A DNA stretch of 33,317 bases from Oscillospiraceae bacterium (lineage in GTDB: Bacteria > Bacillota > Clostridia > Oscillospirales > Acutalibacteraceae). The notes under the pieces were generated by a model. That model had not been told where the DNA came from. It worked only from the letters and a program-made list of their open reading frames with translations, and did not search any database. Each line of letters starts with the position of its first letter. Position 1 is the stretch's first letter. Below, piece after piece: positions 3,935 through 27,406 of the stretch. Made by a program: the position numbers and the translations under genes. Location of the stretch: NCBI GenBank assembly GCA_902796315.1, contig CADBON010000170.1:1-33317 (forward strand), given 5' to 3'.

Positions 3935-3960
3935 AGGCGCCTCCTCTGCGTCTGGGGCAT

Positions 3961-3988
3961 CAAAAAGGCGGCTGTCGCGACAGCCGCC
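3961..3988 (-). terminator. Rho-independent terminator after jag
   Basis: On the minus strand the hairpin is GGCGGCTGTCG/CGACAGCCGCC (a 22-bp perfect palindrome) followed by TTTTTG. It begins 10 nt after the jag stop. Confidence 0.7.
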
Positions 3989-3997
3989 TTTGTGTAA

Positions 3998-5665: not shown

Positions 5666-5684
5666 ATCTGTTCACCTGATTTCT

Positions 5685-13983: not shown

Positions 13984-14013
13984 AACGCACCTCCGTGTGT
14001 CTGCCATAGGATC

Positions 14014-14979
14014 CTATTCGCCGTAGGTCAGCGCGTCGGTATTTTCGGCGCTGTATTCCACCTGCTGTGACCAGCGGCGCACGCTTTCGCGCAGGTCGTC
14101 CGCCGTCAGCGCGCCGGTCTCGCGCAGTGTCGCGCCATCCCACAGCCGCAGGTACAGCACCGCCTCGACGCAAAAACGCATGACCTCGGCGTAGCGGCCG
14201 TCGAAAAAACCGCGCGAGAGGTGACGAAAGATCAGATAGGCGAATACCTTTTTATAATGGGCGTCATACGCCGGCCCGGGCAAGTGCGGACGTGCGGCGC
14301 TCACAAGGCGCGCGGCCTGCTGCTCCCACTCCCGGTCGATGGGCTCGGTCGCGGCGTAGCGGCGGGCGATCTCCTCAAAGGGGCGCGCCGCAAGCGGCTG
14401 TTCCAGCGACCAATCGGCGGTCATCACAACGGCCTTGCCCAGCGTATCGCGCAGCGAACGGCCGCCGTCGAAGATCTCGCGGAACAGGTCGGCGCGAAAG
14501 TCACAAAATTCGTCGTAAAAATCGGCGTCGTCCCGTTCGCGGTCCGTCAGGCCGTCGTCCGCGCCGTCATCCACGGTGACAAGCGTCAGACGGTCGCCGC
14601 TTTCCAGCAGACGGCAGACCTCTTCGCAGGCAAGGCCGAGCCCGCGCTCGGTGCGGCCGGGAAACTCGCGGTAAAACCGCGGGTGCTCGCGGCAAACGTC
14701 GCAGAGCGCGTCGTGCCCGAGCGCGCTGTAAATCTCGCAGAGGTTGTCCGCGTCCAAAAAGGGACAGCGCCCCTCCCCCGTCATGGCAAAACAGCGCGAA
14801 CCGTCGGGCGAAACGGTCATACAGCGGCGCATTTTTTCGCCGAGCGCACCCTCCAGCCCCTCGTAAAACGAGGCGGTGTCGGGGTCGACGTCCACCTCCC
14901 AGCCGAGGCAGCAGTTGTGCGCGCACGCCCCCGCTGTACAGCGGAACGCCTCGTAAAAATCGGGTTGAATGAACTTCAT
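14014..14979 (-). CDS. FliB-like (flagellin lysine-N-methylase family) Cys-rich CxxCxxCC-type protein (321 aa)
   Basis: The N-terminus FRCTAGACAHNCCLGWEVDVDPDT matches the FliB/YkgJ-type Cys pattern. A second Cys cluster is CPFLDADNLCEIY...CDVCREHPR. An ATGA overlap joins it to the trmO stop. The product assignment is from memory of the family pattern. Confidence 0.65.
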   Translation of the reverse strand: MKFIQPDFYEAFRCTAGACAHNCCLGWEVDVDPDTASFYEGLEGALGEKMRRCMTVSPDGSRCFAMTGEGRCPFLDADNLCEIYSALGHDALCDVCREHPRFYREFPGRTERGLGLACEEVCRLLESGDRLTLVTVDDGADDGLTDRERDDADFYDEFCDFRADLFREIFDGGRSLRDTLGKAVVMTADWSLEQPLAARPFEEIARRYAATEPIDREWEQQAARLVSAARPHLPGPAYDAHYKKVFAYLIFRHLSRGFFDGRYAEVMRFCVEAVLYLRLWDGATLRETGALTADDLRESVRRWSQQVEYSAENTDALTYGE

Positions 14980-15653
14980 TTCGTCACGTCCGTAACCGTC
15001 AGCACGTTTCCGCTGACGGTGAATTTTACGTCATAATCGCCAAAGCGCAGGCCGTACACCCGCTCCGGGTCGTCCTGGTACGAGGGGCGCGGGTCCAACG
15101 CCAGCGCCTCGCACAAAGGATTGCGCAGAGCTGCGGGCAGGCGGTTTTCCAAATCGACGGGAATGCGCACCGTCAGGCGGTCAAACGCGCGATCGTCGGT
15201 GAAGCCGCCCGTGGCGTCCTCCACCCGATCGGCGTAGGGCACGTAGGGTTTGACGTCGTAAATGGGCGTGCCGTCCACCAAATCGGCGCCGCCGACCACC
15301 AGTACCGTGCCGTCGGTCGCCGTCTCTTCGATCTTCAGCAGTTTTACGCACGAAAGGCCGATGGGATTGGGGCGGTTGGGCGAGCGCGTGGCAAACACGC
15401 CCAGCCGTTCGTTCCCGCCCAGGCGCGGCGGGCGCACGGTGGGCGACCACTTTTCCGGCCGCGGGTTTTCGGAAAACCCCCAGATCAGCCACAGGTGCGA
15501 AAAGCCCTCCAACCCCCGCAGGGCGTTGGGGTCGCGGTATTCCGGCGCAAAGACGACCTTCGCCGTCAGCGCCGGTGCAAGCCCGCTCTGCCGCGGCACG
15601 CCGAACTTGGTTTTGAAATCGCCGCGCAGTACGGCGATCGGTTCTATGGTCAT
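14976..15653 (-). CDS. trmO: tRNA (N6-threonylcarbamoyladenosine(37)-N6)-methyltransferase TrmO/YaeB family (225 aa)
   Basis: TsaA/YaeB-like segments are FGVPRQSG, FSHLWLIWGF, GVFATRSPNRPNPIGLS and GTPIYDVKPY. The internal ATG at 15653 has a GGAGGA RBS 6 nt upstream. The longer track ORF (to 16142) overlaps the upstream membrane gene and is Arg/Gly-rich junk. Confidence 0.9.
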   Translation of the reverse strand: MTIEPIAVLRGDFKTKFGVPRQSGLAPALTAKVVFAPEYRDPNALRGLEGFSHLWLIWGFSENPRPEKWSPTVRPPRLGGNERLGVFATRSPNRPNPIGLSCVKLLKIEETATDGTVLVVGGADLVDGTPIYDVKPYVPYADRVEDATGGFTDDRAFDRLTVRIPVDLENRLPAALRNPLCEALALDPRPSYQDDPERVYGLRFGDYDVKFTVSGNVLTVTDVTK

Positions 15654-16237
15654 ACCGTTTCCTCCGTTGGTTTCATTTGCTCGCTGCACCACACCGCCGC
15701 GGCCATCGCCGCCAGGCAAAGCACGTCCACGACCATCATCGCGACGTTCGGCTCGACGCACCGTGCGTTTTCGACAACCATCATCACCGTTACCGCAAAG
15801 AACGGCGCCAGCATACAGCCGTACAACAGCCGTTTGCCGCGGTTCCTGAGCCGCTTCGCGACGTAGCACCACAGCGCTGCCATCGCGCCGAGAGCGGTGT
15901 ACGCAAGTCCGTCGACGAGATCCGACAGGGCGTTGGTCGCGAACATTTCCGGGTCGTGCATCCGCACGGCCGCCACGGCACTGAACGCCGTCGTGTACCC
16001 GTAGTAGCCCAGGCACAATCCGGCGAAAAACAGCAGCACACCGCCGGCGATCGCCTTCGGCTCCGCCGTCTTGCGCAGAAGCAGAAGGACGATGATCAGC
16101 GGGTAAACGTCGAGATTGCCGCCGAGGACCGACAGGTTGCACATCCCCCTGCCGAGCGGCGTGGCGGTCAACTCCCCGAGCAGTTGTGCGGCAACGCCGA
16201 AAGCGACGCCGATCAGAAAAAAGCGAAGAATTTTCAT
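15650..16237 (-). CDS. Hypothetical multi-pass membrane protein (195 aa)
   Basis: There are about five hydrophobic helices. An ATGA overlap joins it to the trmO start. I chose the start MKILRFFLIG at 16237, and its RBS is weak. Confidence 0.7.
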   Translation of the reverse strand: MKILRFFLIGVAFGVAAQLLGELTATPLGRGMCNLSVLGGNLDVYPLIIVLLLLRKTAEPKAIAGGVLLFFAGLCLGYYGYTTAFSAVAAVRMHDPEMFATNALSDLVDGLAYTALGAMAALWCYVAKRLRNRGKRLLYGCMLAPFFAVTVMMVVENARCVEPNVAMMVVDVLCLAAMAAAVWCSEQMKPTEETV

Positions 16238-16250
16238 AGTCGTCTCGTTA

Positions 16251-16290
16251 AAGAAAACCGCGGGCCAAGGCAATCGCCTTAGCCCGCGTT
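16251..16290 (-). terminator. Rho-independent terminator of the hydrogenase operon
   Basis: On the minus strand the hairpin is CGCGGGCtAAGGC gatt GCCTTgGCCCGCG, followed by GTTTTCTTT. It begins about 83 nt after the hydA stop. Confidence 0.7.
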
Positions 16291-16372
16291 TTGAAGCAGT
16301 TACAGCGGAAAAGATGCAAATCGTTCAAACGCCTCATCCGCACGCCCCAAAGCGGGGGCCTCGTTCGGTCGC

Positions 16373-18142
16373 TTAATACTGTTTGCGTGCTTCGTAGTAA
16401 GTGTGCAGGATCTCGTGCGCCTTATGGCTGCCGGGTTCGCCGAAGAACTCGTCGTACACTCTGGTGATGTCCGGGTTCAGGTGGCTCTTGCGCACGGGCA
16501 GGTTTTCGTCGTCCTTATACAGACCGGCGGCACGCACGGCGCGAACGTCGGTGAAGTTGCGGACGGAAGCGGGCACGATGGGCTGGCCGCCGCCGTTGAC
16601 GCAGCCGCCCGGGCAGGCCATGACTTCGATGAAGTCATACTGCTTCTCGCCGCTCTTGACCATATCGAGCACCTTGCGGGCGTTGATCAGGCCGCTGGTA
16701 ACGCAGACGCGGATCGTAACGCCGTTGATGGTGAGCTCGGCTTCCTTAATCTCCTCGGTTCCGCGGATGGGCTTGAAGAGGTCGAAGTTCTCCAGCTCTT
16801 CGCCGGTAAGGGCGTGATAGGCGGTACGAAGGGCCGCTTCCATAACGCCGCCGGTCGCACCGAAGATGGTGCCGGCGCCGGAGCCGAGACCGAAGGGCGA
16901 GTCGAACTCATCGTCGGGGATGGCGGTGAAGTTGATGCCGGCTTTGCGGATCATACGCGCCAGCTCACGGGTCGTGAGCGAAGCGTCGATGTCGCGCAGG
17001 CCCTCGACGGCCGTCTTGTAATCGCTGCGCTCCGCCTCAAACTTCTTGGCGGTGCAGGGCATGACGGAAACGGAGAAGATCGACGCGGGATCCCAGCCCA
17101 TTTTCTCGGCATAGTAGGTCTTGGCGACAGCGCCGAACATACCCTGCGGAGATTTGCAGCTGGAAAGGTTCGGGATGAACTCGGGATAATAATGCTCGCA
17201 GAAATTGATCCAGCCGGGCGAGCAGGAGGTGATCAGCGGCAGTTTGCCGCCGTTTTTGAAGCGATCGAGGAACTCGGTGGCCTCTTCCATAATGGTCAGG
17301 TCGGCGCTGAAGTTGGTGTCAAACACGTTCTCAAAGCCAAGCATACGCAGAGCGCGGACCATTTTGCCGGTGACGATCGAGCCCATGGGCATACCGAACT
17401 CTTCACCAAGGCCGACGCGGACGGACGGAGCCGTCTGGACGATAACGTGAAGGTCGGGATTGTTGAGCGCCTCAAAGACCTTTTGGGTGTCGTCACGCTC
17501 GGACAGGGCGCCGGTCGGGCAGTAGTTGATGCACTGGCCGCAGTTGACACAGGCCACGTCGCCCAGGCCCCACTCAAAGGCGGACCCGATGTGGGTGTCG
17601 AAGCCGCGGGCGTTGGCACCGATCACAGAGCAGCCCTGCAGTTTTTCGCAGGCGGCCACACAGCGGCGGCAGAGAATGCACTTCTCGTTGTCGCGGTACA
17701 TATGCACGGCACTGCGGTCGATCTCATAGGGAACCGTGTCGCCGGCCATGGCGTTCTCGTCCTCAATGCCGTACTCGTTGCACAGTTTCTGCAGTTCGCA
17801 GCTGCCGTTGCGCACGCAGGCAAGGCACTCTTTTTTATGGGTGGAAAGAATCAGTTCCAGCGTCATTCTGCGGTTTTCACGGACCTTCGGGGAGTTGGTG
17901 AAAATCGCCATCCCGTCGTTGGCGGGGAACACGCAGGAGGCAACCATGTGCGCCGGACGGCCGGAATCGGGGGCCTCTTGGACCTCGACCAGGCAGATGC
18001 GGCAGGCGCCGATGGCGTTGATGTCTTTCAGATAGCACAGCGTCGGAATTTCAACACCGGCGGTATGGCAGGCCTCCAGAACGGTGCTGCCGGCCGGTAC
18101 TTCATATTCGAAACCGTTGATTTTAACGCGGATCGTATCCAT
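16373..18142 (-). CDS. hydA: [FeFe]-hydrogenase catalytic subunit, M3-type (589 aa)
   Basis: The N-terminus has 2Fe-2S ferredoxin-like Cys residues. A His-ligated cluster region (HKKECLACVRNGSC) follows. Two 4Fe-4S motifs are present (CILCRRCVAAC and CVNCGQCINYCP). The H-cluster motifs are TSCSPGW (P1 variant), MPCTAKKFE (P2) and EVMACPGGCVNGGGQP (P3). Confidence 0.95.
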   Translation of the reverse strand: MDTIRVKINGFEYEVPAGSTVLEACHTAGVEIPTLCYLKDINAIGACRICLVEVQEAPDSGRPAHMVASCVFPANDGMAIFTNSPKVRENRRMTLELILSTHKKECLACVRNGSCELQKLCNEYGIEDENAMAGDTVPYEIDRSAVHMYRDNEKCILCRRCVAACEKLQGCSVIGANARGFDTHIGSAFEWGLGDVACVNCGQCINYCPTGALSERDDTQKVFEALNNPDLHVIVQTAPSVRVGLGEEFGMPMGSIVTGKMVRALRMLGFENVFDTNFSADLTIMEEATEFLDRFKNGGKLPLITSCSPGWINFCEHYYPEFIPNLSSCKSPQGMFGAVAKTYYAEKMGWDPASIFSVSVMPCTAKKFEAERSDYKTAVEGLRDIDASLTTRELARMIRKAGINFTAIPDDEFDSPFGLGSGAGTIFGATGGVMEAALRTAYHALTGEELENFDLFKPIRGTEEIKEAELTINGVTIRVCVTSGLINARKVLDMVKSGEKQYDFIEVMACPGGCVNGGGQPIVPASVRNFTDVRAVRAAGLYKDDENLPVRKSHLNPDITRVYDEFFGEPGSHKAHEILHTYYEARKQY

Positions 18143-18154
18143 TTCTGCTCCTCC

Positions 18155-19954
18155 TTATTTCTTCGAGATCGCGTGGAACGCGCAGTTGTCGATGCACGTG
18201 CCGCACTTGATGCACTTCGTCTGGTCAATGACGTGGGGCTCTTTGACCGCGCCGGAGATGGCGTTGACCGGGCAGTTGCGGGCGCACTTGGTGCAGCCTT
18301 TGCAAAGCGCGGGATCGATCTCGAACCGGACAAGGTTCTTGCAGACGTGGGCGGGGCACTTTTTGTCCACAACGTGGGCAATGTACTCGTCCTTAAAGCG
18401 CTGGTAGGTGGACAGAACGGGGTTGGGAGCCGTCTGGCCCAGACCGCACAGGGAGTTCTCTTTGATGTAGTAGCAAAGTTTCTCCATACGGTCAAGGTCT
18501 TCCATCGTGCCGTTGCCGGAGGTGATCTTTTCGAGCAGTTCCAGCAGGCGGCGGGTACCGACGCGGCACGGCGTGCACTTGCCGCAGCTCTCGTCGACCG
18601 TGAATTTCAGGAAGAACTTGGCGATATCGACCATGCAGGTATCTTCGTCCATGACGATCAGTCCGCCGGAGCCCATCATGGCGCCCTTGCTTCTCAGGTT
18701 GTCATAGTCGATCGGTTCGTCCAGCAGTTCCGCGGGGAGGCAGCCGCCGGAGGGGCCGCCGGCCTGAGCCGCTTTGAACTTTTTGCCGTTCGGGCAGCCG
18801 CCGCCGATGTCGTAAATGACTTCGCGCAGAGTGGTGCCCATGGGGATCTCGACAAGGCCGGTGTTGTTGATCTTGCCGCCCAGAGCAAAGACCTTGGTGC
18901 CCTTGCTGCCCTCGGTGCCCATGCTGTTGAAGAACTCGGCGCCCTTCAGGATGATCTGGGGAATGTTCGCAAAGGTTTCGACGTTGTTTTCGGTGGTGGG
19001 TTTGCCGAACAGACCCTTGACCGCCGGGTACGGAGGACGCGGACGGGGTTCGCCGCGGTTGCCTTCGATGGAGGTCATCAGCGCGGTCTCTTCGCCGCAG
19101 ACGAAAGCGCCGGCGCCGAGACGGATGTGCAAGTCAAAATCAAAGCCGCTGCCGAAGATATCTTTACCGAGCAGGCCGTATTCACGGGCGTCCTTAATGG
19201 CCTTTTCCAAACGCTTGACGGCGATGGGGTACTCGGCGCGGACGTAAACGTAACCCTGGGTCGCGCCGGTGGCGTAACCGCAGATGGTCATGGCTTCCAC
19301 GATGCAGTGCGGGTCGCCTTCCAGCACGGAGCGGTCCATGAACGCGCCGGGGTCGCCTTCATCGGCGTTGCAGACGACATACTTCTGGTCCGCTTTGTTC
19401 GCCGCGGTGAAGCTCCACTTTTTGCCGGTGGGGAAACCGCCGCCGCCACGGCCGCGAAGGCCGGAATCGGACACGACCTTGATGACCTCTTCGGGCGTCA
19501 TTTCGGTAAGGGCCTTGCCGAGCGCGGCATAGCCGTCCATCGCGATGTATTCATCAATGCTTTCGGGGTTGATCACGCCGCAGTTGCGCAGCGCAACACG
19601 CTTCTGCTTCGCGTAGAAGGTGGTGTCGCTCAGCGAAACGTTGCCGTTTTCGACCGCCGCGTCCGCCGCGGCCTCGTCGTAAACGAGACGGCTGACAACT
19701 CTGCCCTTGAGAAGATGCTCTTCAACGATCTCTTTGACGTCGGCTTCCTTCACCTGACTGTAGAAAGTGCCGTCGGGATACACGATCACCACGGGACCGA
19801 GGGCACACAGGCCAAAGCAGCCCGTTTGAACGATCTTGACCTCTTCGCTCAAGTCGTTCTTGGCGATCTGATTCTCGAACTCGGCGATCAGCTTTGCGCT
19901 GCCGGAAGACGTGCAGCCGGTGCCTCCGCAGATCAGTACTTGCGCACGAACCAT
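18155..19954 (-). CDS. hydB: NuoF-like NAD(P)H-binding flavoprotein subunit of the bifurcating hydrogenase (599 aa)
   Basis: An N-terminal thioredoxin-like 2Fe-2S domain is present. The FMN site is GRGGGGFPTGKKW. The NADH site is NADEGDPGAFMDR. The N3 cluster motif is SCGKCTPCR. The C-terminus carries two 4Fe-4S motifs (CKGCTKCARNCP and CIKCGTCIDNC). Confidence 0.95.
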   Translation of the reverse strand: MVRAQVLICGGTGCTSSGSAKLIAEFENQIAKNDLSEEVKIVQTGCFGLCALGPVVIVYPDGTFYSQVKEADVKEIVEEHLLKGRVVSRLVYDEAAADAAVENGNVSLSDTTFYAKQKRVALRNCGVINPESIDEYIAMDGYAALGKALTEMTPEEVIKVVSDSGLRGRGGGGFPTGKKWSFTAANKADQKYVVCNADEGDPGAFMDRSVLEGDPHCIVEAMTICGYATGATQGYVYVRAEYPIAVKRLEKAIKDAREYGLLGKDIFGSGFDFDLHIRLGAGAFVCGEETALMTSIEGNRGEPRPRPPYPAVKGLFGKPTTENNVETFANIPQIILKGAEFFNSMGTEGSKGTKVFALGGKINNTGLVEIPMGTTLREVIYDIGGGCPNGKKFKAAQAGGPSGGCLPAELLDEPIDYDNLRSKGAMMGSGGLIVMDEDTCMVDIAKFFLKFTVDESCGKCTPCRVGTRRLLELLEKITSGNGTMEDLDRMEKLCYYIKENSLCGLGQTAPNPVLSTYQRFKDEYIAHVVDKKCPAHVCKNLVRFEIDPALCKGCTKCARNCPVNAISGAVKEPHVIDQTKCIKCGTCIDNCAFHAISKK

Positions 19955-19974
19955 AGTATTTACCTCCTATACCC

Positions 19975-20340
19975 TTAGATATCCTTAATCACGTAATCCG
20001 TGATGACCTTGCCGCCCTTGAGATGCTTCTCAACAACTTCTTTGGCCTTTTCGGGCGTCATCTTAACGTAGGTCACCTTTTCTTTGCCGGCCTCGAAAAC
20101 CTCTACGACGGGCTCGAACTGGCAGATGCCGATGCAGCCGGTCTGGGTAACGGTCACCTTATCGGACAGACCTTCCCGGTTGACCTCTTCCACGAAAGCG
20201 TTCAGCACCGGACGGGCGCCCGCTGCGATGCCGCAGGTGGCCATACCGACCACGACGCGGATGTCGCCGCTGCCTTCGCGCAGAACGACTTTGTTCTGCA
20301 TTCTCTCTCTGATTGCCGCAAGTTCCTCTAAAGATTTCAT
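19975..20340 (-). CDS. Thioredoxin-like (2Fe-2S) ferredoxin-domain protein (121 aa), HydD-like
   Basis: The motifs GMATCGIAAGA ... TGCIGICQFEPVV are typical of this domain. The gene lies directly upstream of hydB. Confidence 0.85.
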   Translation of the reverse strand: MKSLEELAAIRERMQNKVVLREGSGDIRVVVGMATCGIAAGARPVLNAFVEEVNREGLSDKVTVTQTGCIGICQFEPVVEVFEAGKEKVTYVKMTPEKAKEVVEKHLKGGKVITDYVIKDI

Positions 20341-20375
20341 TTGCTTCTATCCTTTCTGCTTCAATATTTCTGAAT

Positions 20376-20948
20376 TTATATAGAAGGGCAGGGGTTTCCG
20401 TTTGCCCCGTCATACTGTTCTTTGAGATAGTCCGCGATCCAGGCGACCACCTCCGGGTGAGAGAGCGGTACGCCCCCGAGCGCTTCTTTCAACTCATCGG
20501 TATCCAAACGCACCTCGCCGCCGGGCAGCGTGTGGGTAAAGACCCAGCGGATCTCCGGCGCGCCCTGGATGAGCACCGTCAGCGTGGAGATCACGTCGCC
20601 CAAAGGCGTATAATCGATGCTCGTCTTGTAAAACAGCGCGGATGTCGTTGTTCCGTGGTCGGTCGGGAAGTTTTCGCTGTCGCGCGAGACGATGGAAAAC
20701 TCACCGCCCGTCTGCTCGCACGCCAATTTGAACAGCGGGATGCCGAGCCCCACGTTGCGCGTGGTACGCGTGGTGGTGAACGGATCGGTGACCGCGGCGA
20801 GGAAATCGGGTTTCATCCCGCAGCCGTCGTCCGAAATGCTGACAAAGAGCGTTTCCGTCGTTTCCTTCAGTTCGATGCGAACGGTTTCCGCGCCGGCTTT
20901 GACCGAATTCTGCGCAATATCCAGAATATTCAGTGATATCTCTTTCAT
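20376..20948 (-). CDS. GHKL/histidine-kinase-like ATPase-domain protein without a DHp/phosphoacceptor domain (190 aa)
   Basis: The N-box is NILDIAQNSVKAGA, the G1 box is DDGCGM and the G2 box is GLGIPL. There is no upstream dimerisation/His domain. An ATGA overlap joins it to the PHP gene stop. Confidence 0.8.
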   Translation of the reverse strand: MKEISLNILDIAQNSVKAGAETVRIELKETTETLFVSISDDGCGMKPDFLAAVTDPFTTTRTTRNVGLGIPLFKLACEQTGGEFSIVSRDSENFPTDHGTTTSALFYKTSIDYTPLGDVISTLTVLIQGAPEIRWVFTHTLPGGEVRLDTDELKEALGGVPLSHPEVVAWIADYLKEQYDGANGNPCPSI

Positions 20949-21682
20949 ACGGCCCTCCCGAGAAGGTCGAAGAGCGCCTTGACAACGCCCTCTTCGTCCG
21001 AGGGTTCCGCGTCCAACTCAAGGAACGCGCTTTTATCCCGAATGCTCCAAAGATTGTGCGCGTCGGAGGAAACGAGGATGCGTTTGCTTTGCAGAGCCGG
21101 ATAGCGTTCACGGTAGGAAGCGATCTTTTCCGCGTCGGCCAGTTCCGCGTTGAGAAAGCCCGGCTCCGGCGGGAAATCGCCCAGCACGGCGATCGCGCCG
21201 TTGGCCTCCCGGTCCACGTGCGCCGGGTAGCACACGCCGCCGAACCGTGCGACCGCTTCGGGCACTTCCCCGATCATCAGCGACGTTGCCGCCGGCAGGT
21301 AATCCGCCAGTTTTCCGACAAGCTCGTCATTCTCGTCAAGGATCAGCTGTGAACCGAAGATCCGCTCGTTGTTCGGAACGTGCATCCTGCGCGCGTCCAC
21401 AAACGCATCAAAGTCAGCCGCCGCCTGCGGCGAGGGAAAAAGGCAGACCACGTGGATATCCTCCGCCGTGGTGAGTTCCATCCCGCAGATGGGGATCAGC
21501 CCGTTCCGGCGCGCCGCTTGGGCGAAGGCCAAGCCGTTTTTGCAGCTGTTGTGATCCGTGAGCGCCACGATCTGCAGCCCCGCCAAAAGCGCCATACCGG
21601 CGATATTATTCGGCGTCATATCGTCCTCAGCGCAGGGCGACAGACAGGAATGAATGTGAAAATCGTAATAGAACCTGTTCAT
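20945..21682 (-). CDS. PHP-domain (polymerase/histidinol phosphatase-like) phosphoesterase (245 aa)
   Basis: The motifs DFHIHSCLSPCA, ALTDHN and SSDAH are present. The start at 21682 forms an ATGA overlap with the stop of the upstream DRTGG gene, which I prefer over the track start at 21733. Confidence 0.85.
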   Translation of the reverse strand: MNRFYYDFHIHSCLSPCAEDDMTPNNIAGMALLAGLQIVALTDHNSCKNGLAFAQAARRNGLIPICGMELTTAEDIHVVCLFPSPQAAADFDAFVDARRMHVPNNERIFGSQLILDENDELVGKLADYLPAATSLMIGEVPEAVARFGGVCYPAHVDREANGAIAVLGDFPPEPGFLNAELADAEKIASYRERYPALQSKRILVSSDAHNLWSIRDKSAFLELDAEPSDEEGVVKALFDLLGRAV

Positions 21683-22005
21683 ACGGCCGGCCCGAGCAGC
21701 GCCGCAAGCCGAAAGGCGGAAAGGTCCGAACAAAGAACGTTTACGCTTTTTTCTTCCGCCGTGCGGACAAGCTCCTCATCAAGGGTAACGCCCTCCGCGA
21801 GCAAGACCGTACTCACGTCCGAGAGGGACGCCACGGCCACGGTGTTCACGTTGCTCATAATCGTGATCCACACCTGGTCCGCCTGCGCGCGACCCATGAC
21901 CCAGCTGAGCAGGTCGCCCACGTATCCGCCGCTGACCGTTCTGTCCGGCTGCGGCATGGCGACGACGCCAAAGCCAAAGGTTTCCTGCAATTCGCGCACG
22001 GTCAT
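21679..22005 (-). CDS. DRTGG-domain protein (108 aa), second copy
   Basis: GYVGDLLSWVM ... WITIMSNVNTVAVASL ... VLLAEG resembles the DRTGG fold and the paralog at 23780-24127. The start at 22005 forms an ATGA overlap with the stop of the HydS-like gene. The track ORF reaching 22458 overlaps that gene. Confidence 0.75.
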   Translation of the reverse strand: MTVRELQETFGFGVVAMPQPDRTVSGGYVGDLLSWVMGRAQADQVWITIMSNVNTVAVASLSDVSTVLLAEGVTLDEELVRTAEEKSVNVLCSDLSAFRLAALLGPAV

Positions 22006-23276
22006 TCTTGCTTGGCCTCCCCGTTCTGTTTTTTCTGTTCCAGCACCAGGCAGGTACGCTCCTTCCCGGCTACGCCGCGAACGACGTCCTCGGCGTACGC
22101 GCGGCAGGTGGGTGAACCGCACGCGCCGCAATCGATGCCCGGAAGCGTCTGACACAAAGACTGTATCTCCGCCATCATGCGCATGGATTCGCCGATATTT
22201 GCGCTCAGGCGAGAGATCGGCGTGTAGGTGGGCAGACTGTCGGAAATGTATTCCGGCGGGATGAAGTTCTGATCCGCCGGCAGGAAATTCTTTGAAACGG
22301 GCAGATAGCGGCGTACCGACTGCAGGCGGGTCTTGGCGATAAACGGATTTTCGATCGTCATCACGCCGCCCACACAACCGCCGATACAGGCGTCGAGTTC
22401 CACGAACTCGATCTGCGGAATGTTGCCGTTTTCGATGGATTCCAACACCTGCATACAATTCTCAATGCCGTCGGCAAAGAGGTAATTGTCGTTGAGGATC
22501 GCCGTGGATTCTCCGCCGGAGGACGCCCAGCCAATCCCGATCATTCCCGCCTCGCTCGTAACGGACGGGGAAACGGATCGCTTCATGGCGCCGATCAACT
22601 GAAAATAAATATCGTTGAGCGCGACCACCACGTCGATATGGCTCTTATAATCGCCGAACCCGTTGCGGATGTAACTGACCTTTGCCGCGCAGGGGGAGAT
22701 GAAAAACACCGCAATATCCTCTTCCGACAGTTCGGGGTGCTGCTGCTGCGCCTGTTTTTTCGCCTCGATGGCGGCAATCTCCATCGGCGGGAGGATCGGC
22801 AGAATGTTATCTTTCAGATACGGGAACCGCAGAGAGATCAGTCGGGTGATCACGGGGCAGGCGGACGAGATCACGGGTTTTTTGATACCCTCGGCTTTGA
22901 GATAGATCCGCGTATAAGCGGAAACGAGCTCCGCGGCCTTCGCCACTTCATAGACCTCGTCGAAGCCGATGCTCAAAAGGCCCTGCAGAACGTCGTCGAC
23001 GTCTTCCAGATCGTTGAACTGGCCGTACAGAGAGGGCGCAGGCAGCGCGATCTTCCATTTATAATGCATATAATGCTCCAACTTGGAGCACATCGCTTTT
23101 TTCGCGTTGTGCTGGCAGACACGGATGCATTCGCCGCAGTCGATACAGCGGTCGGTGTTGATCTCGGCGTGACCGTCCAGGATGCGGATCGCTTCCGTCG
23201 GGCAGCGCCGAACACAGGTGGTGCAGCCGGTGCATTTTTCTACGTCCAGCACCACGGAGTGCATGTAAGAATTCAC
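22002..23276 (-). CDS. HydS-like putative sensory [FeFe]-hydrogenase homolog (424 aa): 2x[4Fe-4S] ferredoxin, compact H-domain, C-terminal 4-Cys Fe-S motif, no PAS domain
   Basis: The ferredoxin motifs are CTGCTTCVRRCP and CIDCGECIRVC. The P1-like motif is SSACP, with Ala in place of the proton-relay Cys. The P2-like motif is SPCAAKVS. The P3-like motif is ELDACIGGCVGG. The C-terminal Fe-S motif is C-x7-CGACGSPTC. Confidence 0.88.
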   Translation of the reverse strand: MNSYMHSVVLDVEKCTGCTTCVRRCPTEAIRILDGHAEINTDRCIDCGECIRVCQHNAKKAMCSKLEHYMHYKWKIALPAPSLYGQFNDLEDVDDVLQGLLSIGFDEVYEVAKAAELVSAYTRIYLKAEGIKKPVISSACPVITRLISLRFPYLKDNILPILPPMEIAAIEAKKQAQQQHPELSEEDIAVFFISPCAAKVSYIRNGFGDYKSHIDVVVALNDIYFQLIGAMKRSVSPSVTSEAGMIGIGWASSGGESTAILNDNYLFADGIENCMQVLESIENGNIPQIEFVELDACIGGCVGGVMTIENPFIAKTRLQSVRRYLPVSKNFLPADQNFIPPEYISDSLPTYTPISRLSANIGESMRMMAEIQSLCQTLPGIDCGACGSPTCRAYAEDVVRGVAGKERTCLVLEQKKQNGEAKQE

Positions 23277-23285
23277 AACATCACC

Positions 23286-23714
23286 CTACTGATTGATATA
23301 CACGGTCATCGTGATGGTCGTGCCCTCCCCGACGACGGAATCGATGCTCATTTCGTCGGTATACCGCTTCATGTTCGGCAGACCCATGCCCGCGCCGAAA
23401 CCCAGCGAACGCACGGAGTCCGTTGCGGTGGAGTAGCCCTCCTGCATCGCGAGCTCCACGTCCGCGATCCCGGGGCCGTGGTCGACCAGACGGATCACGA
23501 CCTTGTCCTCATATACCTCCACGTCGGCAGCACCGCCGCCGGCGTGAATGACCATATTGATCTCGCCCTCGTACATGGCGATGGAAAGTCTGCGGATGGT
23601 ATCGGGCGGAAGCCCGAGCCGCCGCAGCATCTTTTTGAGTTCAACCGACGCCTGACCGGCGGAAACGAAATTTTCGCCGTCGACGTCGTAATGAAAATTC
23701 AGAGATTCACTCAT
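23286..23714 (-). CDS. RsbW/SpoIIAB-like small GHKL ATPase (anti-sigma-type Ser/Thr kinase fold, 142 aa)
   Basis: The N-box is EGEINMVIHA, the G1 box is DHGPGI and the G2 box is GFGAGMGLPN. It is a single-domain protein. It ends 9 nt before the start of the HydS-like gene. Confidence 0.8.
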   Translation of the reverse strand: MSESLNFHYDVDGENFVSAGQASVELKKMLRRLGLPPDTIRRLSIAMYEGEINMVIHAGGGAADVEVYEDKVVIRLVDHGPGIADVELAMQEGYSTATDSVRSLGFGAGMGLPNMKRYTDEMSIDSVVGEGTTITMTVYINQ

Positions 23715-23779
23715 GGATGCGACAGTGCGCGGTCCTCCGGCGGCCGCCGGAAAAAGAACGCGTTTTCCTTTCCGTTGAT

Positions 23780-24127
23780 TCAGACCTTGGCGCCGTTGAG
23801 ACCGTTCGTGTATAGCGTGCCGCAGGCCTCATACATACGTTTTGCGCAAGCAAGCAGCACGATGCCGCTTTCTTTCGCAATCTCGATCATTTCGGGCGTG
23901 GGCCGTTTGGAACGGACGAAAACGACACAGACCATGTCCATCATTTCCGCCGTACGGATCACCTGCGAATTCACAAGCCCGGTCAGCAGAACGGCCTGAT
24001 CCTTCACATAGGCCAGCACGTCGCTCATCATATCGCTGCCGCAGGCCGCGTGTACGTCCCGATCGAGCAGTTCTTCTCCGCAGAGAACGTCCGCCTCCAG
24101 CAGATCCCGGATTTTACTGATTTTCAT
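23780..24127 (-). CDS. DRTGG-domain protein (115 aa), first copy
   Basis: SDMMSDVLAYV ... AVLLTGLVNSQVIRTAEMMDMVCVVFVRSKRP ... GIVLL fits the DRTGG-domain pattern. The gene starts 32 nt after hydC. Confidence 0.8.
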   Translation of the reverse strand: MKISKIRDLLEADVLCGEELLDRDVHAACGSDMMSDVLAYVKDQAVLLTGLVNSQVIRTAEMMDMVCVVFVRSKRPTPEMIEIAKESGIVLLACAKRMYEACGTLYTNGLNGAKV

Positions 24128-24159
24128 ATGGGTCCGTCCCTTACAGAATAATGATTATG

Positions 24160-24654
24160 TTACGCGTACTGCGCCAGAATACCGGGAACGTCGTCGGGGG
24201 TCACTTTGCCGTACACTTCGCCGTTGATGGTGAAGACGGGCGCAAGACCGCAGGCGCCGACACAACGGCAGGCCTCGATGGAGAATTTGCCGTCCGAGGT
24301 GCATTCACCCTCGTCAATGCCGAGTTCTTCTTTGATCTTGTCAAGCACCTGCTGCGAGCCTTTGACGTAGCAAGCGGTGCCCAGGCAGACCGAGATCGCG
24401 TACTTGCCTTTCGGGGAAAGAGCAAACTGTGCATAGAACGTCGCCACGCCGTAGACTTTCTCCAGCGGGACGTCAAGCCCTTCGGCGATGCGAACCTGCA
24501 CCTCGCGGGGAAGGTAGCCGTAAATATCCTGCGCCACCTGCATGACGTGCATCAACTGGCTCTTGTCGCCGTTCACTTCGGCGATGGCTTCCTTGAGTTT
24601 GGCCGCCTGTTCTGCAGTCTCCTTAAAAGGAATGCTGCTGATTTTTTTGACCAT
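24160..24654 (-). CDS. hydC: NuoE-like [2Fe-2S] subunit of the bifurcating hydrogenase (164 aa)
   Basis: The motifs CLGTACYVKG ... CRCVGACGLAP are the NuoE 2Fe-2S Cys pattern. The ATG at 24654 lies 7 nt after GGAGGA, which I prefer over the track start at 24708. Confidence 0.92.
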   Translation of the reverse strand: MVKKISSIPFKETAEQAAKLKEAIAEVNGDKSQLMHVMQVAQDIYGYLPREVQVRIAEGLDVPLEKVYGVATFYAQFALSPKGKYAISVCLGTACYVKGSQQVLDKIKEELGIDEGECTSDGKFSIEACRCVGACGLAPVFTINGEVYGKVTPDDVPGILAQYA

Positions 24655-24724
24655 TCGGAGTTCCTCCTGTTCGTATTTTTTCGCGAAGGCCGCGTTTCGC
24701 CCTCGCATTCATTACCAAGTATGT

Positions 24725-24753
24725 ATTATACCATTTATACCTTTTAATGTCTA
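24725..24753 (-). promoter_or_regulatory. Promoter candidate for the hydrogenase operon
   Basis: On the minus strand: TAGACA (24753-24748), a 17-nt spacer, then TATAAT (24730-24725) preceded by TGg (extended -10). It lies about 70 nt upstream of the hydC ATG. Confidence 0.55.
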
Positions 24754-24901
24754 CTGGAAAAATGCACTTTTTCGCACTTTTTGATAATTTTTTAACGGTT
24801 TCTCCCCATTCCCTAAAAAATATCCTAAACAGAGGCAGTTTTTTCGACAATCTTACGGAAACGCCCTCCCCTTTCTCACCGCTGCTTCCGAACGAAAAAG
24901 G

Positions 24902-24934
24902 CAAAAAAGAAAGACTCCCGGAGAGCCGGGAGTC
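24902..24934 (-). terminator. Rho-independent terminator of the cohesin/Fn3 gene
   Basis: On the minus strand: GACTCCCGG ctct CCGGGAGTC followed by TTTCTTTTTTG. It begins 16 nt after the stop. Confidence 0.8.
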
Positions 24935-24949
24935 TTTAGGGTTTCGGAA

Positions 24950-27406
24950 TCACGCACCGACGGTGATCGTCTGCGCGGTGAACGGGCTTCTGTTGGAGCC
25001 GCTGTTAGCGCGGACGGTGTAATAATAGGTAGCGCCGGGAGTGACGTCGGCGTCAAGGACCGACAGTTCGGCGTCCGCCGACAGCACTTCGAGAGTGGAC
25101 CAGGCGTCCGAGGCGTTCGCCTTTTTATAGACGGTGTAAGAGGTAGCGCCTTCGACCGCGGTCCAATCAATGCTGACGCCGTCGGCCGTATTGGTCAGAT
25201 CAAACGTCGGGGCCGCCAGGAAGTAGGAACGCGGAATGCTGCTCAAGCCGCTCCAGGTCTTTTTGGTGGCATTGTACGCACGTACGCAGTACTCATAGCA
25301 AGCGCCCTGTTTCAAACCGCTGGCGTCACTGTACGTTCTTTTTGTGGTGGTGGTCAGCGCTTTCCATGCGACCAGCACTTTGCCGGAAGCATCGACCTGG
25401 CGACGGAACACTCTGTACTGCGAAGCACCCTTTACAGCGCCCCATGTGACCTTAAAGCCCTTATTGATCTGTGCCATTTTGACAGCGCCGGGCGCCGCCA
25501 CATAGTTGATGCTCTTGGCAGTGTATGCGCTCTTGGTTCCGATCGCCGTGTAGGCGCAGACGGTGTAATAATACAGCTTGCCGTTCGCGGCAGTGGTATC
25601 GGTATAACTCAACTTGGTCACGGTCTTGAGCTTCGTCCAGGAATCGGTGGGTTTCAGACGGCGGTACACGTTGTACTTGGTAGCGCCGGTGATCTTGTTC
25701 CACGAAACGAGCACGCCGCTCGTCGCGTTAGCAAGTTTCACGGTCGGGGTCGCCAGGAAGTAGGCGGCGTTCGTCTTCAAGCCGCTCCACGCTTTTCCGG
25801 TCGCGTTATACGCTCTGACGCAGTATTGATAGCGCTTGCCGGTCTTCAGACCGCTGGCGTCGGAATACGAAAGGTTTTTGGTGGTGGTCAGCGTTTTCCA
25901 GCCGGTCAGGGCCTTGCCGGCGGCGTCCAGTTCGCGGCGGAACACGCGGTACTGCGAAGCGCCCTTGACGGTCGTCCACGTGACCTTAAAGCCCTTGGCG
26001 ACCTGCTGCAGCTTCACGGAAGAGGGCGTCGCTACGAAGAATACCGACTTCGAGGTGAACCAGCTGCTGGTGGTATCGGAGTAGGCGCGAACCGTATAAT
26101 AGTTGGTTTTCCCGTTCGCTGCACCTGTGTCGACGTAGGAGGCGGCGGCAGTAGCCGAAACGGTCTTCAAAACTTTCCAGGAATCGGTGGTCTTCATACG
26201 GCGGTACACAATGAACTTGGTCGCGCCGGCGGACTTCGTCCAGGTGACGATCACGCCCTTTTCACCGTTGGCAAGCTTAACAGTCGGATTGACGATATAG
26301 GTCTTAGCGGCAGTAGCGCTGTAAGCACTGAAAGTGCCGGCCGTTTTGTCGCTGGTGTTGTTATCATAATACGTAAAGACCGTGTATTCGTAATTCTTGC
26401 CGGAAACCAGGTCTTTGCTCGTGTCGCTGAAGGTGCGGACGCTGGCACTGGCCGTGTCGCCGAGTTTGGTCCAGCCGGTGGCGGGATCGCCGTTCGCATC
26501 CAGTTGACGGCGGAAGACACGGTACAGCGTCGCTTTGCTGACCGCGTTCCAGGTCACCTTAATGCCGCCGGTGATGGGAGCCAGGTTGATCGTCGTGGGG
26601 GCGGCAACGTACATGGTGGAAACCCCGGCAGCGTTGTAGCCGGCGGAAAGGCCGCTGGCATTGATCGCACGAACCGTATAATCATACGAGGTGCCCTGCG
26701 TGACGGATTTATCGGTATACACCTGTTTGGTGCCGGAAGCAGGCGTGACATCAAAGGTCGTAGAGCCGGCCCAGCTCGAGGCGCCCGCCGCTCTGCGATA
26801 TACGCGGTAAGAATCGGCGCCCTTGACGGCATTCCACGTCACGGCGATGCCGCCGTCCGCGTTCTTGGCGCTGACGAGTTGGACATCACTGAGTGTAACG
26901 ACCGACTTGGTGCCGATCTGGGTCTTGGTATCGCCGCCGCCGTACAGGTTGCTCTCGGTAAGCAGCAGCTGGTTGCAGTAAGCCTTGACCGTGGTCTTGG
27001 GCCGTGCGTTGCCGATCACCTTGAATGTGGCGTAAAAGACCTGCGTGGACTTGGTCACGGAAACGGCCTTGGAGCCGGTAAACGACAACGCATAAAGGTT
27101 GTCGGATCCGCTCACGGCGCCGTGCGCTTCCACGCCGAAATTCGCGGCGGCGGAGCTCAAGCCGGCCTTGCTGTCCTGCGGCTGCAGAACGGCGGGGTCA
27201 TACTCCAGCCAAATCACCGCGCCGAACAGTTTTTTGCTCGCGTTAAGATTGACGCTGAACGTAATCTCATCGTTCACACTGTTCGTCGACGTGAACGTAA
27301 AATAGTCTGCCGGGTTCACATCGGCGGCGTCCGCAGCAACGGAGAAGCAGACGACGCAGGTGAGGACCATCAGAAGGCAGAGGACAGATGAAATCGCTCT
27401 TTTCAT
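24950..27406 (-). CDS. Secreted protein: signal peptide, cohesin-like N-terminal domain, then seven Fn3-like modules (818 aa)
   Basis: The signal peptide is MKRAISSVLCLLMVLTCVVCFSVAADA. The cohesin-like segment is ITFSVNLNASKKLFGAVIWLEYDPAVLQP. Seven modules of 85-104 aa each carry W-x2-V-x-GA-x2-Y-x-V(Y/F)(R/K)(R/K) and YxYxVRA motifs. I see no LPXTG, SLH or dockerin. Confidence 0.88.
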   Translation of the reverse strand: MKRAISSVLCLLMVLTCVVCFSVAADAADVNPADYFTFTSTNSVNDEITFSVNLNASKKLFGAVIWLEYDPAVLQPQDSKAGLSSAAANFGVEAHGAVSGSDNLYALSFTGSKAVSVTKSTQVFYATFKVIGNARPKTTVKAYCNQLLLTESNLYGGGDTKTQIGTKSVVTLSDVQLVSAKNADGGIAVTWNAVKGADSYRVYRRAAGASSWAGSTTFDVTPASGTKQVYTDKSVTQGTSYDYTVRAINASGLSAGYNAAGVSTMYVAAPTTINLAPITGGIKVTWNAVSKATLYRVFRRQLDANGDPATGWTKLGDTASASVRTFSDTSKDLVSGKNYEYTVFTYYDNNTSDKTAGTFSAYSATAAKTYIVNPTVKLANGEKGVIVTWTKSAGATKFIVYRRMKTTDSWKVLKTVSATAAASYVDTGAANGKTNYYTVRAYSDTTSSWFTSKSVFFVATPSSVKLQQVAKGFKVTWTTVKGASQYRVFRRELDAAGKALTGWKTLTTTKNLSYSDASGLKTGKRYQYCVRAYNATGKAWSGLKTNAAYFLATPTVKLANATSGVLVSWNKITGATKYNVYRRLKPTDSWTKLKTVTKLSYTDTTAANGKLYYYTVCAYTAIGTKSAYTAKSINYVAAPGAVKMAQINKGFKVTWGAVKGASQYRVFRRQVDASGKVLVAWKALTTTTKRTYSDASGLKQGACYEYCVRAYNATKKTWSGLSSIPRSYFLAAPTFDLTNTADGVSIDWTAVEGATSYTVYKKANASDAWSTLEVLSADAELSVLDADVTPGATYYYTVRANSGSNRSPFTAQTITVGA
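24953..26884 (-). repeat. Array of seven tandem Fn3-like coding modules, including an imperfect ~530-nt two-module duplication (R3-R4 versus R5-R6, 25208-26284)
   Basis: I set module boundaries by counting: aa 175-270, 271-374, 375-461, 462-554, 555-639, 640-733 and 734-818. R3/R5 begin TVKLAN... and R4/R6 contain KGFKVTW..VKGASQYRVFRR. DNA near 25380-25470 and 25910-26000 is visibly similar. Confidence 0.8.

Follow-up and report, generated by a model that had tools for sequence, protein, structure and literature searches.

A group D HydS cassette in a bifurcating [FeFe]-hydrogenase operon of a Clostridia bacterium: a possible modular phospho-switch

Why does an operon for an electron-bifurcating hydrogenase carry, among its structural genes, six further genes for ATPases, a phosphoesterase, small DRTGG-domain proteins and a second hydrogenase-like protein? 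The question is raised by contig CADBON010000170.1 of an Oscillospiraceae bacterium (GenBank assembly GCA_902796315.1), analysed here over 33,317 nucleotides (nt) and hereafter called the window, whose host is a gut or rumen bacterium of the Clostridia. There, the six genes at 20376-24127 are set among those of the [FeFe]-hydrogenase HydABC, all on the minus strand. The answer proposed here, tentatively and with a little less than even confidence, is that this group D HydS cassette would be a modular ATP-dependent phospho-switch tuning HydABC to H2 and probably also to redox.

The operon comprises ten co-directional genes (16373-24654, minus strand) between a single strong promoter and a single terminator. 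It opens with hydC (24160-24654), encoding the NuoE-like [2Fe-2S] subunit of bifurcating HydABC (2Fe-2S_thioredx, 174 bits), with a ribosome-binding site, AGGAGG, 8 nt ahead of the ATG at 24654. The cassette follows in the order DRTGG-1 (115 amino acids, aa; 23780-24127), GHKL-142 (23286-23714), HydS (22002-23276), DRTGG-2 (108 aa; 21679-22005), PHP (20945-21682) and GHKL-190 (20376-20948). Then come a thioredoxin-like [2Fe-2S] ferredoxin (Fdx, 'HydD'; 19975-20340), assigned by domain and family match, the NuoF-like FMN/NADH subunit gene hydB (18155-19954; Complex1_51K and NADH_4Fe-4S) and hydA (16373-18142), the bifurcating-type catalytic [FeFe]-hydrogenase subunit, which reaches 871 bits against NF040763 (NADH-dependent [FeFe] hydrogenase; cut-off 765). 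The enzyme has the composition of group A3, namely a HydA with 2Fe-2S and NuoG-like 4Fe-4S domains and an H-domain, a NuoF-like HydB and a NuoE-like HydC. An earlier sequence-only reading of this DNA had placed six open reading frames (ORFs) between hydC and Fdx-hydB-hydA, and all of them were found there. The domain identities that it had proposed were upheld by hidden Markov model (HMM) searches, with DRTGG-2 below its cut-off and linked to DRTGG-1 by hhalign.

Upstream of hydC, a sigma-70-type promoter-like site (24753-24725, minus strand; TAGACA-17-TATAAT with a TG extension, 11/12 matches) is the sole strong one on that strand within 15800-25200. An intrinsic-terminator-like hairpin lies 3' of hydA (16288-16259, minus strand); its 13-bp stem includes 10 GC pairs and precedes a T-rich tail, and the gene upstream of hydC has its own terminator with a strong stem (24937-24910, minus strand; the strong stems of this strand have 12-13 pairs). 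As had been anticipated, no terminator-like site occurs on the minus strand from hydC to the end of hydA. With one promoter-like site and no internal terminator-like site, a single transcript of about 8.5 kb thus fits the locus. The three ATGA start/stop overlaps (22002-22005, 21679-21682 and 20945-20948), from which translational coupling had been proposed, are read directly in the sequence and are conserved in relatives, in which the HydS/DRTGG-2 junction overlaps in 58/78 cases, DRTGG-2/PHP in 61/76 and PHP/GHKL-190 in 51/73. Because the relatives' junctions overlap too, the overlaps of the window go beyond chance. DRTGG-1 and GHKL-142 also overlap in 65/76 relatives, whereas the window has a 65-nt gap instead (23715-23779). 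The GC-rich palindrome in this spacer, CCGGCGGCCGCCGG, was considered as an RNA element and rejected, its fold being no better than that of shuffled sequences (z = 0.39); no Rfam family is matched in 16000-25200.

The putative H2 sensor of the cassette is HydS, whose GTG start codon is backed by the N-termini of its homologues. Two Fer4 domains are followed by Fe_hyd_lg_C (98.5 bits) and a FeS domain (PF04060, 44 bits). The N-terminal cysteines C15/18/21/25/44/47/50/54 correspond to two [4Fe-4S] clusters, the H-cluster cysteines C140, C196, C297 and C301 of motifs L1, L2 and L3 are all present, and a C-terminal Cx2Cx4Cx16C motif is formed by C383/386/391/408. Each cysteine of the H-cluster and of the accessory clusters is thus in place, in keeping with the H-cluster protein that had been predicted. 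These residues are invariant in 62 homologues down to 28% identity, except C18 and C408, which are kept in at least 90%. Around the active site, Ala139 replaces the proton-relay C299 (SSACP), Ser194 replaces M353 (SPCAAK) and Asp295 replaces M497 (ELDAC, in ELDACIGGC), and Pfam finds no PAS domain in the protein. Group D has been defined by the absence of C299, the change of Met353 to Ser/Thr, a variable Met497, the lack of PAS, the Cx2Cx4Cx16C motif and a HydABC neighbour (PMC8163306). The window HydS matches this signature exactly and, judged by its sequence, is a group D (M2e) protein.

A member of the group that has been studied biochemically is TamHydS of Thermoanaerobacter mathranii, whose low turnover, high H2 affinity and structural change on H2 are sensor-like (PMC8163306, PMC13104023). 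H-cluster binding and sensor-like H2 kinetics have been shown for TamHydS alone, and the window protein, 48% identical to Thermoanaerobacter HydS, is a putative sensor by that resemblance. The PDB holds no group C or D HydS structure, and the best sequence matches in it are other [FeFe]-hydrogenases at about 1e-14. The family is nevertheless large, with at least 8000 database clusters at E <= 1e-20, 399 clusters (50% identity) at E <= 1e-30, and at least 598 species-level genomes carrying a HydS relative.

The cassette is not of a new kind. The proximity of M2e hydrogenases to kinases and to bifurcating HydABC was described by Calusinska et al. and Carere et al. in 2010-2012 (PMC3561251), and next to TamHydS an ATPase resembling histidine kinases was noted by Land et al. 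(PMC8163306). Because the link between M2e hydrogenase, kinase and HydABC is already published, the window locus belongs to a known locus type, with a lineage-specific order. Indeed, the group D loci of T. mathranii (TamHydS), Clostridium thermocellum (Cthe_0335) and Caldicellulosiruptor (Csac_1857) share the HydS architecture with its active-site substitutions and the same ten genes, i.e., two DRTGG, two GHKL, PHP, HydS, hydC, Fdx, hydB and hydA. In these thermophiles, a five-gene module and a gap of 110-170 nt after PHP precede hydC-GHKL-Fdx-hydB-hydA, whereas in the window hydC has moved to the front and six genes stand between it and Fdx-hydB-hydA under one promoter. The statement that the function of the combination is not established agrees with the published work (PMC8163306, PMC13104023), in which the interaction partners of group D HydS were still being asked for in 2026 (PMC13104023). 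In the searchable literature, no role is described for the DRTGG, PHP and GHKL partners, none of the 13 papers that mention DRTGG has a hydrogenase context, and neither a DRTGG domain nor a histidine kinase-like ATPase linked to hydrogenases was found.

Two other systems resemble this one in part. Group C (M2f) HydS/HfsB proteins (Thermotoga maritima, Ruminococcus albus, hfsABCD of Thermoanaerobacterium) are likewise H-cluster proteins of low activity, with two N-terminal [4Fe-4S] clusters and a C-terminal four-cysteine cluster. They are likewise encoded beside Ser/Thr-kinase-type, phosphatase and hydrogenase genes and have been proposed as H2 sensors (PMC5707799, PMC6776011). They include a PAS domain and a PP2C-type phosphatase, whereas the window has no PAS, encodes PHP where group C has PP2C, and adds two DRTGG proteins. 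The HoxBC-HoxJ-HoxA system of Ralstonia eutropha also pairs a catalytically weak hydrogenase acting as H2 sensor with a GHKL-family kinase, through which hydrogenase genes are controlled (PMC5707799). However, its hydrogenase is of an unrelated class, and HoxJ, a complete PAS histidine kinase, works with the response regulator HoxA; these domains are absent in the window.

The arrangement was then compared across relatives. A locus search seeded with a 15-sequence HydS alignment returned Oscillospirales only, and the 80 closest genomes were used; a further scan was seeded with a DRTGG-1::GHKL-142 fusion, 80 more metagenome loci were annotated by our own HMMs, and adjacency was counted over 169 loci in all. 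The 80 closest genomes are Oscillospirales-type metagenome-assembled genomes (MAGs) from gut and rumen, with HydS identities of 55-83%. The ten-gene order of the window recurs in 39 complete Oscillospirales loci, and the loci cut by contig ends are consistent with it, except L059, in which hydC is placed after PHP. DRTGG-1 is adjacent to GHKL-142 in 162/167 cases, GHKL-142 to HydS in 142 and to DRTGG-2 in 5, HydS to DRTGG-2 in 133/138, DRTGG-2 to PHP in 136/137, PHP to GHKL-190 in 115/133 and GHKL-190 to Fdx in 97/124. The co-occurrence with hydABC, on which the sequence-only reading had staked its proposal, therefore withstood the survey, the order being near-fixed in every informative relative.

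The cassette had also been described as embedded inside the hydrogenase operon, which is true of this Oscillospirales lineage and not of others. Five other lineages examined, those of Thermoanaerobacter and Caldicellulosiruptor included, have hydC after PHP. In these two genera, as in a MAG of the Tepidanaerobacteraceae and one of another Bacillota bacterium, DRTGG-1, GHKL-142, HydS, DRTGG-2 and PHP come first and, beyond a gap, are followed by hydC, GHKL-190, Fdx, hydB and hydA. Contigs from the human gut carry hydA-hydB-Fdx-GHKL-190-hydC on one strand and the five genes divergently on the other, and further metagenome layouts consist of the six genes followed by hydC-Fdx-hydB, or of the six genes alone. 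Because other lineages place hydC after PHP or separate the cassette from hydABC, the embedded position is lineage-specific, and the underlying unit is modular. Nor is the cassette a single indivisible unit: HydS is dispensable in five loci, which consist of DRTGG-1, GHKL-142, DRTGG-2, PHP and GHKL-190, and GHKL-190 stands after hydC in several lineages.

The six-gene cassette occurs by itself in Parabacteroides distasonis, identified by exact-sequence look-up and present in at least 1000 contigs, where its neighbours are gyrA, TPR and M24 peptidase genes (L129-L156 group). In one locus of this group (L150, 8001-11772), HydS is split into two ORFs, 8793-9311 and 9321-10172, by pseudogenization or assembly error. 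Ruminiclostridium herbifermentans (L085) has the five genes alone, with no hydABC within 10 kb; a 1023-aa HisKA_7TM-GAF-GGDEF-EAL protein is encoded directly 3' of this module (13152-16223). Two further loci carry additional genes. A sugar island (DeoR/aldolase/PfkB/DUF4432) lies between HydS and DRTGG-2 in Petroclostridium (L088, 10579-14593), and a gene for a 263-aa protein without Pfam match stands directly 5' of DRTGG-1 in Thermoanaerobacter (L083, 8412-9203), which may be the 'AraC family regulator' of Land et al.

The first clue to what the cassette may do is provided by its smaller kinase-like protein. GHKL-142 is a one-domain SpoIIAB/RsbW-like serine-kinase/ATPase (HATPase_c_2, 49 bits; cut-off 27.4), with SpoIIAB (1TIL/1L0O, 2e-6) and then RsbW as best PDB matches. 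Its N, G1 and G2 boxes are conserved (EGEINMVIHA, DHGPGI and GFGAGMGLPNM), and it falls far under the NCBIfam equivalog cut-offs for SpoIIAB/RsbW (TIGR01925, 56 bits vs 135). In-frame DRTGG-1::GHKL-142 fusions with an uninterrupted ORF were found in three groups of loci (L086/L089, L103/L107/L116 and L138), whose mutual identity is 41-49% and whose linkers vary over 20-30 residues, and the 90%-identity cluster of the L086 fusion has a second member of 269 aa from an independent Logan assembly. Three divergent groups and this second member make independent assembly errors unlikely, and DRTGG-1 and GHKL-142 very probably act as a physical pair. Three further candidates were set aside: apparent GHKL-142::HydS fusions in L011 and L024 show stop codons on translation, and a fusion in L164 lies on a contig with several frameshifted genes.

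This pair recalls the partner-switching systems SpoIIAA/SpoIIAB/SpoIIE and RsbV/RsbW/RsbU. As in these, a one-domain HATPase_c_2 serine kinase shares an operon with a phosphoesterase, and a small alpha/beta protein with a conserved Ser at a helix start is encoded directly upstream of the kinase and translationally coupled to it. However, the window has DRTGG instead of STAS, PHP instead of PP2C and no sigma factor, the equivalog cut-offs are not reached, and the phosphorylation is predicted. Partner switching had been dismissed in the sequence-only reading; with a SpoIIAB/RsbW-like GHKL-142, a DRTGG-1 in the position of the STAS antagonist and fusions in three lineages, this was premature.

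The same likeness opens another explanation, which we consider rather unlikely: the output may be transcriptional, with GHKL-142 acting as an anti-sigma factor or as regulator of an unlinked transcription factor, DRTGG-1 as its antagonist, and H2, through HydS, switching the expression of hydrogenase and fermentation genes located in this operon or elsewhere. The best matches of GHKL-142 are indeed the anti-sigma F and anti-sigma B factors, the succession of DRTGG-1, kinase and next gene matches that of spoIIAA-spoIIAB-sigF, a like action has been proposed for group C HydS in R. albus (PMC5707799, PMC6776011), and an AraC-type regulator was reported beside TamHydS by Land et al. (PMC8163306). 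Yet Pfam-type scans of the ten operon genes and the genes adjoining them detected no receiver, STAS, sigma-factor or DNA-binding domain, as the sequence-only reading had stated. In the 80 close relatives, too, whose flanking genes were not scanned, no sigma, STAS or DNA-binding gene was seen in the ten-gene operon. Moreover, the operon promoter looks sigma-A-type, and the shortfall of GHKL-142 from the equivalog cut-offs (56 vs 135 bits) speaks against a true anti-sigma factor.

If GHKL-142 is a kinase, a substrate may be sought in its partner. DRTGG-1 scores 26.8 bits against Pfam DRTGG (cut-off 25.2). Its AF2 model (pLDDT 88.5, pTM 0.84) finds as top Foldseek match 2IOJ, the DRTGG protein AF1212 (TM 0.82, E 2e-6), followed by 3L2B/3L31 (DRTGG domain of a CBS-pyrophosphatase) and 1KO7 (N-terminal domain of HPr kinase); as modelled, DRTGG-1 has the alpha/beta fold common to DRTGG and the HPr kinase N-terminus. 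DRTGG-2 reaches only 22.2 bits against PF07085 (cut-off 25.2), but aligns to DRTGG-1 with an hhalign probability of 98.4% and is, from this comparison of sequences, a clear paralogue. The residues that gave the domain its name are not kept, TGGDRSD and LTGN of AF1212 being TGLVNSQ and VRSK in the window. The two proteins have the motifs G-x-D-[ML]-[ML]-S-x-V-[LM] and [LI]-T-x-x-x-N in common, the former appearing as D-[ML]-M-S-D-V-L (with Ser35) in DRTGG-1 and as G-D-L-L-S-W-V-M in DRTGG-2.

The Ser of D[ML]MSDVL is present in 155/161 DRTGG-1 sequences, and the four exceptions with Ala are exactly the DRTGG-1-like paralogues without an adjacent kinase (L128, L155, L159 and L165). In these loci, at about 1000-2200 on the minus strand, a second operon is composed of a hydC-like gene, the DRTGG-1-like gene with Ala and a hydB-like gene. 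In the DRTGG-1 model, a strand leads directly into helix 34-40, at the start of which Ser35 lies. This placement recalls Ser58 of SpoIIAA. Other conserved residues are found at or near strand-to-helix junctions of the model as well (D32/S35, T49-G50-L51-x-N53 and R72-x-K74).

Such junctions are the usual ligand pockets of Rossmann-like folds, and a pocket may be supposed here from the model. An alternative therefore merits consideration, although we regard it as improbable: the cassette may sense nucleotides or the energy state, with DRTGG proteins as ligand-binding adaptors (adenine nucleotide, NAD(H) or Ap4A-type), GHKL proteins as conformational switches driven by ATP, PHP hydrolysing a nucleotide or oligonucleotide signal and HydS adding the H2 input. 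DRTGG domains occur in the nucleotide-regulated CBS-pyrophosphatase, the regulatory N-terminus of Pta contains one, and the module exists without HydS. However, the DR and TGG residues are not conserved, GHKL-142 retains every kinase box of SpoIIAB, and the replacement of Ser by Ala in kinase-less paralogues only is a better fit to phosphorylation.

The PHP protein bears on the same alternative. It is a metal-dependent phosphoesterase of the PHP family (Pfam PHP, 35.5 bits; cut-off 26.4) with the complete set of metal ligands (HxH, E, H, H, DxH; H9, H11, E69, H77, H155, D207 and H209), the residues H9, H11, C17, D43, H44, E69, H77, H155, D207 and H209 being invariant in 31 sequences. Its nearest solved relatives in a PDB profile search are EndoQ (4e-9), 3E0F, TM0559, RNase AM, Cv1693 (a pAp phosphatase) and PolC, and family libraries return TrlF, CehA and RNase RNM. 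This proximity to EndoQ, RNase AM/YciV, pAp phosphatase and the N-terminal PHP domain of TrlF favours a nucleotide signal, but the cassette encodes no cyclase or synthetase that would make one. Beside the HxH metal site, residues 12-17 (HSCLSPC) hold the Cys17 that is invariant in 31 sequences and a Cys13 kept in at least 85% of 77 Oscillospirales-clade sequences, and this CxxxC might supply an additional metal ligand or form a site sensitive to redox.

The last cassette protein, GHKL-190 (HATPase_c, 49 bits), consists of a histidine-kinase-type catalytic and ATP-binding (CA) domain at residues 1-105, closest in a PDB profile search to KinB (7e-11), ZraS and WalK, and of a conserved C-terminal domain of about 85 aa without PDB match. 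Pfam finds no HisKA/DHp domain in it, and no receiver is present in the window. The motif H-[ILMV]-D-x-x-P-x-G was considered as a phospho-acceptor H-box and rejected, for its His, in a part predicted to be strand or loop, is Ser both in the window and in Thermoanaerobacter; a single-sequence AF2 model was unusable (pLDDT 38). At one locus, L119, PHP and GHKL-190 are fused.

A possible counterpart of GHKL-190 is known from Acetobacterium woodii, where hydE lies between hydC and the ferredoxin-like hydD in hydC-hydE-hydD-hydB-hydA1, a position also found in Thermoanaerobacter-type loci, and where HydE was described as an ATP-binding-domain protein outside the purified enzyme, with a suggested role in 'assembly or signalling' (PMC3315566). 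GHKL-190 resembles HydE by position and description alone, and differs from it in following PHP with an ATGA overlap. Two kinase systems may be cited as analogies, not as evidence of family membership. In HPr kinase/phosphorylase, a DRTGG-like N-terminal domain is joined to a kinase, as in the DRTGG-1::GHKL-142 fusions, but the catalytic domain is of the P-loop type and not GHKL. The mitochondrial kinases PDK and BCKDK, also of the GHKL type, act as switches of a redox enzyme complex, which they phosphorylate on Ser, and BCKDK is a weak match of GHKL-190; they differ by an extra N-terminal helical domain, and the homology is limited to the ATP-binding fold.

Where such a switch would act is suggested by the HydS-less cassettes. 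The one of L111, which belongs to the Nitrospirota by exact-sequence look-up, has a HAMP histidine kinase and a sigma-54 response regulator on its 5' side, the regulator overlapping DRTGG-1, and a single-domain receiver overlapping GHKL-190 on its 3' side. That of L120 is followed by receiver::GcvH-like, receiver::HydC, Fdx, hydB and hydA (3730-4509 and 4577-5443 for the two fusions). The receiver::HydC protein has 288 aa and an N-terminal receiver with the canonical DD, D, T and K residues; it was found on three contigs, with a second member of its cluster, all of one lineage. In L122, the HydS-less cassette precedes two radical-SAM genes, one with a BATS domain, that look like HydE and HydG.

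From the receiver::HydC fusion, the four loci with a DRTGG-like gene between hydC and hydB, and the lack of a DNA-binding gene, we infer that the output would be exerted at HydC/HydB. The protein-level control of HydABC suggested in the sequence-only reading thereby gains indirect support from other lineages, while its mechanism stays conjectural. The same observations, pointing to contact between proteins, count against regulation of an unlinked transcription factor. On the other side, a sigma-54 enhancer-binding response regulator shares an operon with the Nitrospirota module, and in P. distasonis and R. herbifermentans hydABC is not linked to the cassette, as a transcriptional output would allow.

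The radical-SAM neighbours of L122 raise the question of assembly or maturation, in which the GHKL proteins would be chaperone-like ATPases that, with DRTGG, PHP and the HydS-like protein, fold or assemble HydABC or insert its clusters, no signalling being involved. GHKL-190 does match HATPase_c_3 (MutL/Hsp90-type) weakly, and for HydE of A. woodii Poehlein et al. did not decide between assembly and signalling (PMC3315566). We nonetheless hold this to be very unlikely. GHKL-142 is specifically anti-sigma-kinase-like, the cassette occurs away from hydrogenase structural genes and is associated with receiver, sigma-54 and histidine-kinase genes, and TamHydS has sensor-like kinetics (PMC8163306). 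The occurrence of HydS-less cassettes beside two-component genes (L111 and L120) likewise favours signalling over assembly, as far as gene neighbourhoods can tell. In addition, HydABC of several species has been assembled heterologously or purified without the cassette proteins.

Control of transcription appears as a separate matter. Palindromes resembling the Rex operator (TTGTTAAN4TTAACAA) occur within 300 nt upstream of 47/146 loci at up to 3 mismatches, against 9.5 expected, and of 21 loci at up to 2 mismatches, against 1.0 expected. L087 has a perfect site, and in the Tepidanaerobacteraceae MAG (L086, 7548-8180) a rex gene overlaps the first cassette gene. The window has a single match, the weak unstranded palindrome TTGATAATTTTTTAACGG (24781-24798, 3 mismatches), about 28 nt upstream of the -35 element. 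It is not significant alone, 29% of shuffles giving a match, and is meaningful only within the enrichment across loci. On these sites, transcription of the operon is plausibly governed separately, by Rex.

Taken together, a switch that works by phosphorylation on HydABC would run as follows. HydS would bind H2, shift its conformation and modulate the DRTGG-1/GHKL-142 pair; GHKL-142 would phosphorylate the invariant Ser at the helix N-terminus of DRTGG-1, and perhaps DRTGG-2, in parallel with SpoIIAB acting on Ser58 of SpoIIAA; and the PHP phosphoesterase would reset the switch. DRTGG-2, PHP and GHKL-190 would form the output half, acting at the protein level on the NuoE/NuoF-like HydC/HydB module, with transcription controlled separately, plausibly by Rex. 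The result would be a circuit like a partner switch, with DRTGG in place of STAS and PHP in place of PP2C. A two-part module is favoured, the input being DRTGG-1 and GHKL-142, usually with HydS, and the output DRTGG-2, PHP and GHKL-190, which stay closest to hydC, Fdx and hydB.

Several points weigh against this scheme. What was observed is the anatomy of the cassette, from which we infer the phosphorylation, the substrate of PHP and the target. The DRTGG fold is unrelated to STAS, and DRTGG-1 may be the regulatory domain of the kinase and not its substrate, because its relatives in CBS-pyrophosphatase and at the HPr kinase N-terminus are regulatory or oligomerisation domains; the fusions fit either role. 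The Ser/Ala pattern comes from four related loci and is probably one evolutionary event. PHP was correctly identified as a phosphoesterase in the sequence-only reading, but by sequence it is closest to nucleic-acid and nucleotide phosphoesterases and not to known protein phosphatases, and no CpsB/YwqE-type protein phosphatase was returned by its PDB profile search. GHKL-190 has the ATP lid of histidine kinases but no domain with a phospho-acceptor His, the highly conserved His of its H-[ILMV]-D-x-x-P-x-G motif is Ser in the window, and its fusion to PHP is confined to one locus of one lineage. The receiver::HydC fusion is known from one lineage and is probably a single event. Finally, in P. 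distasonis and R. herbifermentans no hydABC lies anywhere near the cassette, and HydE of A. woodii does not co-purify with the active enzyme (PMC3315566).

A wider claim may be framed, which we consider doubtful. DRTGG-GHKL-DRTGG-PHP-GHKL would be an unrecognised module shared across phyla (Bacillota, Bacteroidota and Nitrospirota), based on phospho-Ser DRTGG switches in the role of STAS, with PHP in that of PP2C, and fed by varied inputs, either group D HydS or a membrane histidine kinase. It would control the bifurcating enzyme post-translationally via HydC/HydB and would be the missing route of group D HydS.

Besides the cassette, the window gives some indications on its host. The operon is neighboured by genes for a cohesin/fn3 surface protein, an unannotated membrane protein and TrmO. 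The surface protein (24950-27406, minus strand) is a secreted protein of 818 aa with an N-terminal cohesin and many fn3-like repeats of about 85 aa, and a GH5 cellulase is encoded at 12520-14007; these two suggest a fibre-degrading, cellulosome-like lifestyle. The genes jag (KhpB) and yidC are found at 3998-6662 on the minus strand, a pair that usually lies near the chromosomal replication origin. A 1191-aa ORF on the plus strand (16403-19978), antisense to hydA/hydB, and other long antisense ORFs were rejected as genes, being artefacts of high-GC coding sequence.

The five partner genes are the best candidates for the signalling pathway of group D HydS, and the comparative data single out the pair of DRTGG-1 and the SpoIIAB-like kinase, together with Ser35. 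New comparative clues in this respect come from the fusions of DRTGG-1 to its kinase, from the change of Ser to Ala in kinase-less paralogues, from cassettes that lack HydS or stand alone in other phyla, and from the receiver::HydC protein. In many Clostridia of the gut, the rumen and biofuel production, H2 is evolved mainly by bifurcating HydABC, and its partial pressure steers their fermentation between acetate and ethanol. Because the cassette is present in the common human gut species P. distasonis, a mechanism found for it would reach beyond the Clostridia.

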